Shown: piece after piece, positions 24,022 through 57,944 of the stretch
Numbering within the stretch: the first letter of the stretch is position 1
Layout of the letters: each line of letters starts with the position of its first letter
Source: Octopus vulgaris
Taxonomy: Eukaryota
Length of the DNA: 64,000 bases
Direction: 5' to 3'
Assembly (NCBI GenBank): GCA_951406725.2
Contig: OX597831.1
Coordinates: 39,866,001-39,930,000, forward strand
The notes under the pieces: model-generated
The model's input: only the letters and a program-made list of their open reading frames with translations
Told to the model about the DNA's origin: nothing
Database searches by the model: none
Translations under genes and position numbers: made by a program

Positions 24022-25086
24022 AGGCTAATTCCCATAATGAATAGGTTTGGCATCCAAGAGTTCTGTGCCGGTGCCATGTAAAAAGCAAACATGCTGGTGC
24101 CGCGTAAAAGTGCTTGTGTGGTGCCACGTAAAAGCGTCCAGCACACACTGTAAGGTGATTGGTGTTAGAAAGAGCATTCAGGCCAGAACTTGATGTAGCT
24201 TTCCAGCTCCAGTCACACATTCAACCCATGCCAGCATGGAAAATAGATGTTAAAAGATGACGATGTATAAGGATTGGGGAAATGTTTGCGTCAATCATGT
24301 TCAGTTAATAAATTGAAATCTCTTTCATGTCTGCCTCTCTCTTTCTCTTTCATATATATATGTATATATATATATATGTTGTTGAATTTTGGGATGGTCT
24401 TATATTTATATATTTTTATATCTATGTGTGTGTGTATTTGTGCATATTTCCATTTGTGTGTGTGTGCCTTCAACACCGAAACAAAACTCATGCCAAAAAG
24501 AGGCCGAATACCCAGTTACCCAAGCAAACCCATAAGTGCCAAAACAGTTGGACCCCATTTCTCCTACTCCATTGTAGTTAAGGGCATTTGTGGGTGCCTT
24601 CTGAACTAGTTAGCTCATAAGTAAACACCCCCCCACCGAACCTTTCTCACTCTCTCATGCAGCAAGTCATAACTTCAACACCTTCGTATGCAGTGATCCA
24701 ATGCGTGAGCCTCTACATAGTCAGTATATAGGCCTGCTAGAAATAGCAGCCCAAATTGCCCAATATACACCATAGTGTCCCCTTTCATAGTTAATGTCCT
24801 CTTATGTTGCCGGGCAACATCTTCCTCATATGTCCTATTGTTGATATTGTTTTGTATGACTGGGTTCACCTTTCAGCAACTCTCCCTAGTGAGGGTATGT
24901 CAGGACAGCAGGAGCACTTGTGTGGCTATCATAACTTTGTTCCAACTGTAAAGTTCTCTTAACCTCATATATTGGGCTCAATGACATGAACTTAGCCCTG
25001 TCCCTCAAAATTCCAGCTGTGACCATCTCGCCTGCTTCACTTGTTTATTCTTCTTTTTACCTTTTTCTAACCATAGTGTATTTTCT

Positions 25087-25700
25087 AATGATCTCTTTTT
25101 ATTATTGATCCCTCCTTTTATTATTATTGATCCCTCCTTTTTATTATTGATCCCTCCCTTTTATTATTGATCCTTCCTTTTATTATTATTGATCCCTCCT
25201 TTTTATTATTGATCCCTCCCTTTTATTATTGATCCCTCCTTTTATTATTATTGATCCCTCCTTTTATTATTATTGATCCCTCCTTTTTATTATTGATCCC
25301 CCCCTTTTATTATTGATCCCTCCTTTTCTTATTGATCTCCCTTTTCCATTGATCCCTCCTTTTTTTATTGTTGATCCCTCATTTTTATATTATTGATCCC
25401 TCCTTTTTATTATTGATTCCTCCCTTTATTATTGATCCCTCCTTTTTATCATTGATTCCTCCCTTTATTATTGATCCCTCCTTTTTATTATTATTGGCCC
25501 CTCCTTTTTTATATTATTGATCCTGCCTTTTTATTATCGATCCCGCTTTTTTATTATTGATCCCGCTTTTTTTATTATTGATCCCTCCTTTTTTTATTAT
25601 CGATCCCTCTGTTTTTTATTATTGATCCCGTCTTTTTATTATCGATCCCTTCTTTTTTATAATCGATCCCCCTCTTAATTATTGATCCGTCCTCTTCTAT
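25087..25700. repeat. Minisatellite, ~20-24-bp unit (att)attgatccctcctttt, over 25 copies
   Basis: Directly visible tandem array. Confidence 0.95.
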
Positions 25701-29487: not shown

Positions 29488-29679
29488 TCATCATCATCAT
29501 CATCGTTTAACGTCCGTTCTCCATGCTAGCATGGGTTGGACGGTTCGACCGGGGATCTGGGAAGCCAGAAGGCTGCACCAGGCTCCGGTCTTATCTGGCA
29601 AAGTTTCTACAGCTGGATGCCCTTCCTAACGCCAACCACTCCGAGAGTGTAGTGGGTGCTTTTTACGTGCCACCTGCAT
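29488..29679 (-). mobile_element. SINE/LINE-tail family C with (GAT)n tail
   Basis: (cat)n cgtttaacgtccg...gctggatgcccttcctaacgccaaccac. Relatives at about 8002-8230, 17399-17554, 24045-24265, 36443-36760, 46484-46580, 48633-48730 and 62840-63000. Confidence 0.8.
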
Positions 29680-29685
29680 ATATAT

Positions 29686-29886
29686 AAGAATAATGGAAAC
29701 TGGAGGCAAACACTCAAGATTGTTATTTAAATCACCATATCACCAACATATGTTTCAATAGATTCACTAAAATAAATCCACCATTTTAAGCACATTCTGA
29801 ACTAGAAGGTAAAAGGAACTAAATATTGGTGATGTAAATGATTTAAATTACATATTGAGCGCTTGTCTTCATTTTCCATTATTCTT
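29686..29886. mobile_element. Internally deleted second copy of the inverted-terminus hammerhead element
   Basis: Starts aagaataatggaaactggaggcaaacac...atatcaccaacatatgtttcaat and ends ggtgatgtaaatgatttaaatt...cattttccattattctt. Both ends are homologous to the termini of 34309-35203, and the left end abuts (TA)n. Confidence 0.65.
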
Positions 29887-30815
29887 AGGTTCTCCAAAAC
29901 ATATCTGTATATAATAGAATTGTAAATTCAGAAACCAATTCAGGTAAAGAAGGCTAGCTCACCAGAAAATCACCATTACTCAAACGACTCAACTCTCCAT
30001 TTTTCTCCCCACTTTTGTTCCCTTCTCTCTTTCCACTCTCATGTAATTTATTGTACACTGAAATTATTATCACATGAAGAAGGATGTGAAACAGCTGTAA
30101 TCCTAAGTATGACAAGTGGTTAAATAACCATATTCACTCTCTCATCCTCCCCCTTTGTTTCTTCACTCAGGTTCCCTCCTATCTCTCCCACCCCCGCTGT
30201 GGACCCCTCCTCTCTCTCTTTCTCTCCTATTTCTCTGTTCCCCTCCCTCTGAATGTGTTGCTTGAAAGTTCCCAGGATAAAAAAAAAACAACAAACAAAA
30301 CAATTTAAATTGTGAGGCCTCTACCAAGCCTTTCACCTCCACACCATGCCCCTCTTTATAGATATGACAAAGGACAAGAAAGAAAGAAAGACAGAAAGAA
30401 ACATATTGATTGATTTGTAGAGTGAAGATTAAACTCCATACGCTAATAGGTTAATGTATAAAAAAATATCAGAAATGCATTTAAATACTACATCTAAGAA
30501 AAAAAAATATACATAGATAGATATCTTTTTAGATATCACTTTAGATGGCATTTTCGTTCCTGGTTCATTCTTGATCATAATGTCTAATTGTCCCTGGTTG
30601 ACCCAGTGTCAAACAGCAACAGCCTGTGTGATTGTTTCAGGCCTGTCATCAACTGAAACAGAGACCCATAGAGCCCTCTGGCTGACTGCTGGCATTAGAT
30701 AAATATGACATTGACATGATGTACAATTTAAAATTAAATCTTTAATATAGTGAAGTCCATTGTGGGTGATGGGCGCAAGTCATTTTTAATGTCTGTGTCA
30801 TCATCTTTTCGTAGG

Positions 30816-33970: not shown

Positions 33971-34128
33971 CAGGAAATAATTTCTACCTCTTTTTATGGA
34001 GACAAAAGGGTTTATAAGACTGCAAAAAAGAGGTGCTCAAATGAAATTGAGACAAAAAAAAAAAAATCATTGATTAGAGGACAAACATTGACTCGAATTT
34101 CATGTTTGTACTCTAATCAATGTCTTCA

Positions 34129-34175
<47 letters not shown>

Positions 34176-34483
34176 TTAATTTACAAGGAAAGATCCAGAG
34201 GAACAGTTACCAGGGTAGCCAAATGTCACACAAGCGCCTAAGAAATTAGTAACCACACTTGCATGGCTGATAATTCTGAGGAGAAGTGAGACGTGTTTTG
34301 GAGAAAACAAGAGTAATGGAAAATGGCGACAAATGCACAAGATCTTATTTAGATCATTTATATCACCAACATACGTTTCGATTGATACATAAAAATAGAT
34401 CCAAGAGGCAAAAACACACTTTCAGCTATTTTATATATCTTCCCCCTTACCTAATAATATCTGTAACTTTCACTTTATTCTTT

Positions 34484-34794
34484 GTGGAGGCACATGGCCT
34501 AGTGGTTAGAGCAGCGGACTCGCAGTCGGGGGATCACAGGTTCGAATCTCAGACCGGACGATGTGTGTTTTTACGAGCGAAAACACCTAAGCTCCATGCG
34601 GCTCCAGCAGAAGGTAATGGCAAAACTTCTGCTGACTCTTTCGCCACAACTTTCTCTCACTCTTTCCTCCTGCATCTTGCAGCCCACCTGCGATGGACCG
34701 GCGTCCCATCCAGGTGGGGAACCTATATGCCAAGATACCAGGAAACCGGCCCTCTCGAGCCAGGCATGACTCGAGAAGGAACAAACAACAACAA
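34484..34794 (+). mobile_element. tRNA-derived SINE with a V-domain-like motif and 12-bp TSD
   Basis: TSD actttattcttt at 34472-34483 and 34795-34806. A-box tggcctagtgg, B-box ggttcgaatct, motif cctgcgatggaccggcgtcccatccagg and (aac)n tail. Confidence 0.9.
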
Positions 34795-35056
34795 ACTTTA
34801 TTCTTTTCATCCCATACATCCCATTCTTTCCTTTATCATTTCTATCCATTTGCCATTCACTTTCTATTTGTTTATACCTCCATTACTCCTTTAATTCTCT
34901 TTCTCTCTTACTTCTCTTTTTCTTTCCTCCTATGACATCAAATTTCCTAACGGTATTTCAAAATTACTTGCTTTCCCTATCCACATTTGTTTTTCATATA
35001 TTATATATCGTAGTTTCTTACACCTGTAAAAATGGCTTATTAATGAGCACTGCTGT

Positions 35057-35154
35057 TTATAATCTCCCTGATGAGATTGATACATTATTCCACATTATTT
35101 ATCCTCTCGGGGTTTATTTTAATGCATCAATTGAAACATATGTCGGTGATATAA
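35057..35154 (+). ncRNA. Type I hammerhead ribozyme motif (Penelope-like minimal type), apparently intact
   Basis: Core CTGATGA at 35068-35074 and GAAA at 35133-35136. Stem II gattgatacatta (35075-35087) pairs with taatgcatcaatt (35120-35132), 13 positions with 1 mismatch and a closing G.U. Stem III is A-T plus C-G closing a palindromic ATAT loop. Cleavage triplet GTC at 35142-35144. Stem I ttataatctcc/ggtgatataa has 1 mismatch and 1 bulge. Confidence 0.8.
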
Positions 35155-35269
35155 ATGATTTAAATAACATCTTGTGTGTTTGTCTCCATTTTCCATTACT
35201 CTTATACGCACACACACACATACACACACACTTCAAAAGAAAATTAAGAAAATGGAGATATAGCATTAA

Positions 35270-39399: not shown

Positions 39400-41158
<1,759 letters not shown>

Positions 41159-57584: not shown

Positions 57585-57752
57585 AACTGTGTGGCTTAGT
57601 GGTTAGGAGTGTTGTGTTCTTGAGTAAAACACTTCACTTCACAATGCTCCAGTCCACTCAGCTGGCAGAAATGAGTAACTCTGCGATAGACCGGCATCCC
57701 ATCCAGGTGGGGAATATGTACACCATAGAAAGTGGGAAACTGGCCCTTATGT
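57585..57752 (+). mobile_element. SINE combining CORE-like and V-like motifs, head partly deleted
   Basis: Shares its middle with the 46000 copy and its 3' part with the 34484 copy. Confidence 0.7.
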
Positions 57753-57944
57753 GTCAGTTTTTATTTTCTATTGGGAGTCTTTATGAGGCGTTTAGTACTG
57801 GTGTCATAAGTGCCACCCCAGCCATCTTGCTCAAGAATACAACAAACAGCCCAGTCTGAGAATTGAACTCGTTATCTCATGATTGTAAGCCCAATGCTCT
57901 AACCACTGAGCCATGCGCCCTAATAATAATAATAATGATAATAT

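Follow-up and report, generated by a model that had tools for sequence, protein, structure and literature searches.

Most of the traits that distinguish the locus described here have already been published for Penelope-like elements (PLEs), namely inverted truncated copies, tails on one side, palindromes at junctions, hammerheads in the pLTR and hammerhead pairs on opposite strands. How inverted PLE insertions with a one-sided tail originate is considered an open question (PMC8557442). With Poseidon PAc of Anolis, reverse transcription in vitro was found to start at two internal sites bounding the tail, with AT-rich cutting and no difference in start site between the strands (PMC11167929). Pairs of hammerhead motifs lying on opposite strands 100–700 bp apart have been ascribed to truncated PLEs (Cervera and de la Pena 2014, PMC4209133).

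The window, by which we mean the whole stretch of 64,000 nucleotides of Octopus vulgaris DNA that was analysed (contig OX597831.1, positions 39,866,001 to 39,930,000), contains at 34174–35203 what is almost certainly a truncated PLE copy. It is a single PLE insertion, composed of two 5′-truncated copies of the element 3′ end placed head to head, and a SINE interrupted it later. The original prediction had seen in this region a non-autonomous Penelope-like or retrozyme family; the Penelope-like affinity and the hammerhead were both found, and the family proved to be neither non-autonomous nor a retrozyme, with no fixed termini. As in PLE insertions from the literature, inverted repeats lie head to head with a tail at one end, and junctions show palindromes and microhomology, often without target-site duplication (TSD) (PMC3846280, PMC8557442). 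An inverted 5′-truncated copy is also what the window family has in common with Penelope-13_HM (PMC8557442).

Two properties depart from the published PLE traits. The tail is 135–150 nt long, about four times the 30–40 bp of published PLEs (PMC8557442, PMC3846280), and the two alternative 3′ ends of the element, the proximal site A and the distal site B, are coupled almost strictly within each inverted insertion. The same two papers describe the one-end tail as 'optional' or occurring 'often', whereas the coupling is counted here, at 51 of 53 pairs in the window family and 10 of 10 in a sister family. In the literature covered by our search we found no counted A/B coupling, no tail of 135–150 nt and no match for the window family, which may already be catalogued in Repbase or Dfam.

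Anatomy of the window insertion

The two ends had been described as inverted copies, and this was borne out: 34309–34397 and 35115–35203 are 89% identical over 89 nt (E 4e-28), and align with a score of 146, where 200 shuffles gave no more than 44. The insertion is organised as follows.

34128–34173, unstranded: (TA)n(TG)n microsatellite flank, left of the target (from sequence)
34174–34408, minus strand: left inverted arm, the element 3′ end, stopping at distal site B (consensus 988–1227 plus 3 nt, 91% identical)
34174–34308, minus strand: tail, the 135 nt by which site B lies beyond site A, which in tandem copies L253 and L260 continues into the ORF 5′ UTR and start codon
34407–34408, unstranded: inversion junction, 2 nt common to both arms (from alignment to the consensus)
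34407–34483, plus strand: first part of the 5′-truncated sense arm, last GIY-YIG codons and start of the 3′ UTR (from consensus mapping)
34472–34483, plus strand: left copy of the 12-bp SINE target-site duplication (right copy 34795–34806)
34484–34794, plus strand: unrelated SINE of 311 bp, a later insertion, with an (AAC)-type tail and a tRNA-like head judged by eye
34795–35203, plus strand: remainder of the sense arm, 3′ UTR/pLTR, stopping at proximal site A (consensus 674–1095, 91% identical)
35056–35155, plus strand: predicted minimal type I hammerhead (from motif order and predicted fold)
35204–35231, unstranded: (CA)n-type microsatellite flank, right side (from sequence)

Both sides had been expected to end at the same nucleotide, and this did not hold, the left arm carrying on for another 135 nt as far as 34174, with 91% identity to the consensus. 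Nor is the interior non-coding and free of ORF sequence, as had been thought: the endonuclease ORF supplies its first part with its final codons (KHTFSYF, 34412–34432, with a 4-nt gap relative to the consensus at the stop), and the 3′ UTR of that ORF comes next. A further 311 bp of it (34484–34794) belong to the unrelated, high-copy SINE, for which the genome gave 7,256 first-look candidates; 40 were scored, and the best 39 other copies were 91–93% identical. ARAGORN found no tRNA in the window, SINE head included. Two weak part-matches to the SINE lie on opposite strands at 57681–57919. No clear TSD was detected around the element, in agreement with the original prediction. Plus-strand open frames of 192 and 139 aa over the element were rejected as chance, as they span inverted arm, SINE and UTR. 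No RNA on record was listed as containing the copy. Contigs covering 34927–35137 occur in a pair of runs from one sample, guessed to be of RNA; they reveal neither strand nor RNA origin, and speak neither for nor against expression.

As a locus, 34174–35203 is ordinary, one decayed PLE insertion of at least several hundred, and most likely a dead fossil. Identity to the consensus is 91% in its arms, with a median of 85% over the family, which indicates that the copies are old. Such truncated inverted PLE copies resemble non-coding inverted-repeat elements, and run the risk of being mis-annotated as MITEs or as new ribozyme families.

The second copy reported at 29686–29886 was also recovered, with somewhat different limits.

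29684–29779, minus strand: left arm, stopping at site A (consensus 994–1097, 81%)
29780–29826, unstranded: spacer of 47 nt that the 1,233-nt family consensus does not match
29827–29901, plus strand: right arm (consensus 1036–1110), ending about 15 nt beyond site A

Here too the ends are not at the same nucleotide on both sides, as the right arm extends about 15 nt past 29886; it is probably the tailed end, the remainder having been lost. Another interspersed repeat (29490–29680), starting after a (CAT)n run, adjoins the second copy on the left, and similar sequence comes after the ends of L061 and L027. Elsewhere in the window we noted an inverted repeat at 39563–40743 that is for the most part AT microsatellite, its 506-nt arms being 95% complementary and separated by 169 nt, and a minisatellite with a period of 20–22 nt at 25044–25696.

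The parent element and a young sister family

The window terminus was searched for genome-wide next to an ORF encoding reverse transcriptase (RT) and a GIY-YIG endonuclease, as the original prediction had proposed, and the association was found in L077, L080, L253 and L260. In L077, an ORF with RT (DKT, YRDD) and endonuclease is followed by the terminus (79% identity), and aligns to residues 80–775 of the 778-aa protein of the sister family with 47–74% identity; L080 is similar, the terminus lying downstream of an RT and endonuclease ORF. In L253 and L260, terminus and tail continue straight into a short 5′ UTR and an ATG, which is the partial-tandem pLTR arrangement also present in sister copies L061–L064. 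Site B is located about 45–50 nt before the ATG, and both A and B are upstream of it. Longer copies translate, upstream of the UTR, to a C-terminal GIY-YIG end finishing in KHTFSYFK. Arms can be as short as about 30 nt or exceed 1 kb, so that every copy is its own truncation of the autonomous element, and the family is not one with fixed termini.

The sister family was encountered in a protein search with the endonuclease domain, which gave 15,131 candidates, three 778-aa open frames of this young family among them. These three ORFs are intact (L061:5170-7503, L062:4787-7120 and, on the minus strand, L063), the copies are about 99% identical, and the unit measures 2.84 kb. The hammerhead core of the sister family is CCGAAGA in the copies seen, its triplet GUA, and the family has lost the CxCX5C linker.

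Judged by its motifs, the parent of the window copy is an autonomous Penelope-like element with Hydra-clade characters. RT and endonuclease domains were named from motifs and from a published alignment, with which the motifs agree by eye. SDKTG is present in L077; RIRW occurs in L249, L251 and L260, and LIRW or HIRW in L253 and L261, the residue after RW being Q or L, not K. The CxCX5C linker reads CNCGPNKTC in L022 and CNCDPDRTC in L024, and CxxC and CxH surround the conserved E and N (CSLC..E..N..CLH). The assignment of the window family to the Hydra clade is proposed from the DKT, RW, CxCX5C, CxxC and CxH motifs, along with a unit of small size, a hammerhead in sense orientation and insertion into (TA)n. 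All of these are shared with the Hydra-clade PLEs of PMC8557442, which have a single ORF with a C-terminal GIY-YIG domain in a unit below 3 kb, DKT and RW motifs, the CxCX5C linker, CxxC/CxH around E and N, a sense hammerhead near the 3′ end and (TA)n targets. Compared by eye with Hydra-1_Obim of the same paper, the window family differs in protein start and hammerhead, and the endonuclease motif searched for had no match in the PMC8557442 supplement.

Pfam returned no domain for the 778-aa ORF and no match for three endonuclease fragments, PDB sequence matches were all at E above 0.2, and a protein search with a 99-aa fragment found nothing; with the full ORF, 45 relatives, mostly unnamed, were obtained at 28–39% identity. 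An in-frame, asparagine-rich (AAT)n stretch is located between RT and endonuclease (L017:2146-2448, minus strand; consensus 143–221), and recalls the N-rich inserts of rotifer Penelopes.

Two unlike ends in inverted insertions

With the right terminus as query, the 2.8-Gb genome yielded 458 first-look candidates, of which 40 were scored, with 47 matches. Half of the first loci (15/30) extended beyond site A into common sequence, as does the left arm in the window. In total, 230 loci were gathered from DNA, protein and pattern searches as well as by location, and merged with part of the window into 183 stretches, which were mapped to a family consensus built from 49 long arms. A 3′ end was called B at consensus position 1185 or above and A at 1083–1103, and arms below 72% identity were excluded. 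The arms are a sample and not a census, one query having selected tailed arms and the pattern searches having yielded 64 and 103 matches.

Arms were present in 155 of the 183 stretches, 223 in all. Their starts are scattered, from consensus 1 to beyond 1150. Their 3′ ends fall at site A in 104 cases and at site B, about 135 nt further on, in 105; 11 are in between and 3 stop short of A. Sixty outward-facing inverted pairs were counted and no true inward-facing one, as the two flagged as such are neighbouring insertions or fragments; six same-strand neighbour pairs are split arms or pieces 1–3 kb apart, and 103 arms had no partner in view. Seven inverted pairs with an intermediate or short end were left unclassified. 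Of the other 53, 51 combine one A with one B end, one is A+A and one B+B, where independence predicts 26.5 A+B (p ~2e-13). In the sister family, with a tail of about 150 nt, all 10 pairs with both ends in view were A+B, in a small sample (14 young loci; the pattern search gave 6 matches). We conclude that the two ends of inverted insertions are systematically different, not identical.

Both kinds of end mostly adjoin dinucleotide repeats, found within 24 nt of 86 of the 104 A ends and 82 of the 105 B ends, with a background of 17%; the first flank repeat is TA at 75/104 and 61/105, respectively. Junctions between the arms overlap or leave at most 10 nt in 37 of the 60 pairs, and a 23-nt quasi-palindrome at consensus 1038–1060 carries junctions. 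In 15 of these 37 directly joined pairs, both arms start no more than 15 nt apart, a number reached in none of 10,000 permutations.

The near-strict A/B coupling favours priming at both ends of the cut. The PLE nuclease would cut a (TA)n target; one of the cut DNA ends would then prime reverse transcription at site A, its partner at site B. The two cDNAs would terminate early and be joined where short stretches complement each other, in many cases at palindromes or at ribozyme-region stems. The 135-base extension at one end likely marks where the copying enzyme starts. Taken jointly, the identity of 34174–35203 as a truncated PLE and this two-end priming make up a reading that we consider fairly probable. 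The window family resembles PAc in having two fixed internal sites that bound the tail, AT-rich targets, a tandem read-through template and a pLTR hammerhead (PMC11167929). The PAc sites, however, lie about 111–118 nt inside the ORF, whereas those of the window family are upstream of the ATG, one per end; and as no strand difference was seen with PAc, that work does not explain the A/B coupling. In its extended form, our proposal is that Hydra-clade PLEs undergo obligately asymmetric twin priming, at two fixed sites of a tandem RNA that are 135–150 nt apart and upstream of the start codon, so that each insertion would receive exactly one tailed end, and that hammerhead cleavage may set the 5′ limit of some arms. 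We put this forward tentatively, with rather less than even confidence. Against priming at two ends, the B arm extends past site A in 32 of the 37 directly joined pairs, and this requires a tandem RNA, a pair of RNAs or strand displacement.

The same element could arrive at inverted insertions by another route, in which site B alone is primed, the cDNA copies itself at a palindrome, and the endonuclease resolves the product at site A. This fold-back route accounts for an A end and a B end in each insertion and needs no additional assumption, and would fit the excess of symmetric junctions (15/37) and their position on the quasi-palindrome; self-priming at palindromes (PMC3846280) and nuclease resolution of the tail (PMC8557442) have both been proposed. 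The symmetric junctions are explained equally well by a folded-back single cDNA or by two primers. Against the fold-back route, the B arm in 5 of the 37 joined pairs begins no earlier than consensus 1090, consists of tail only and could not have templated the A arm beside it, which it does not contain; L050 and L063 are likewise. Initiation of reverse transcription was also measured at both borders of the tail in PAc (PMC11167929). We regard fold-back as less likely than two-end priming, though it is the rival that keeps the most in its favour.

It is very improbable that the copies form a stand-alone family, non-autonomous or of retrozyme type, whose inverted termini are fixed and about 100 bp long. 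Many copies are indeed short, non-coding and stop at site A, and animal retrozymes have been reported to derive from PLE pLTRs (bioRxiv 10.64898/2026.07.22.740005). But no junction or unit length is common to the copies, arm starts are scattered, the window interior consists of ORF end, 3′ UTR and SINE, and no tandem array of short hammerhead units was found among the 155 merged loci with arms. The window family has a type I hammerhead and a PLE pLTR link in common with metazoan non-LTR retrozymes (PMC7229834; bioRxiv 10.64898/2026.07.22.740005), which however are tandem short non-coding units, whereas the window copy is an inverted piece of a truncated coding element. A sequence unrelated to the window family (L066:4929-5974), repeated in tandem about every 468 bp and with CTGATGA...GAAAC in each unit, is a candidate retrozyme.

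Finally, a conventional MITE, bounded by terminal inverted repeats and mobilised by a DDE transposase, hardly deserves consideration, in spite of the inverted ends and the non-coding look: the ends are unequal, A versus B, with a tail at one; a non-alternating flank word of at least 7 nt is shared in just 4 of the 51 A+B pairs, all AT-rich; no consistent TSD emerged across these 51 pairs, where TA repeats could mask a TA duplication; and the ORF linked to the terminus encodes RT and GIY-YIG, a linkage that refutes this reading.

The rule that an insertion has an A end and a B end, together with a tail whose length permits unambiguous mapping, constrains the mechanism of PLE integration. If asymmetric twin priming is true, the young sister family, with its intact ORFs and 99%-identical copies, would make it directly testable in vitro.

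The predicted hammerhead near site A

Inverted termini overlap a hammerhead in the window because the latter lies about 60 nt inside site A. As had been noted, the CTGATGA core is found on the right arm only (35068–35074). It is followed by GAAAC at 35133–35137 and GUC at 35142–35144, with a predicted cut after 35144, and CUGANGA, GAAA, NUH and stems I–III all come in order. The predicted stem II has 12 bp (35075–35086 with 35121–35132), stem III has 2 bp and a palindromic loop, and stem I is imperfect. The GAAAC half had been placed at both ends of each copy. In 34174–35203 this holds, with GAAAC-ATAT-GTC at 35133–35144 and, on the minus strand of the left arm, GAAAC-GTAT-GTT at 34368–34379 with no CUGAUGA core; it fails for the right arm of the second copy, which is without GAAAC and aligns from (T)GGTGAT onwards, immediately past the position where cleavage is predicted.

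We propose that it represents the usual pLTR ribozyme of the parent, which in tandem transcripts is expected to cleave as a dimer. It resembles the minimal type I hammerheads of metazoan PLEs, with a helix III of 1–2 bp, a palindromic loop, a long helix II and a predicted dimer (PMC4209133); compared with these, subfamilies bear the core variants CUGAUAA and CCGAAGA, and cleavage here is a prediction. Stem II and loop 2 are far longer than in the listed Hydra motifs, with about 58 nt between the core halves versus about 10–25 (PMC8557442).

Pairing gives the predicted hammerhead moderate support. Across 8 sequences of several subfamilies, 83% of the cells in its stems pair, against 29–43% in slid controls, and 7 pairs, in stems I and II, are changed on both sides. 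The number of covarying pairs did not beat shuffles (222/500), with n=8 and a structure drawn from those same sequences. RNAalifold returned no consensus structure on 50 decayed copies. Rfam gave no hammerhead match in 34200–35230, and none window-wide among the 150 of 311 matches listed, in a scan swamped by microsatellite matches. Left unconstrained, the window copy is predicted to fold otherwise than as a hammerhead (-16.1 versus -12.5 kcal/mol with the core held open), and both core halves are kept in 23 of 93 arms. Of the idea that a fold-back transcript could compete with the ribozyme, the fold-back was supported in silico, the left arm being predicted to pair with the ribozyme 3′ half in a hypothetical read-through plus-strand RNA.

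Do arms start where the ribozyme would cut? In a sample unbiased for length, 13 of the 29 arms starting at consensus 1001–1071 do so within 1029–1042 (p 0.002), where the adjoining quasi-palindrome blurs alignment ends. Once six arms had been dropped, two with mis-called starts (L155, L121) and four with palindrome junctions (L087, both arms of L138, L143), the ratio was 7/23 (p 0.15). Starts at 1029–1042 were found in 17 of 104 A arms versus 7 of 105 B arms (p 0.03, uncleaned).

Two sequence variants were noted in this region. CUGAUAA replaces CUGAUGA in many window-family copies (L016, L175, L193, L190, L077), apparently as an inherited core change, and an 8-nt duplication just after the cleavage triplet divides the window family into two subfamilies.
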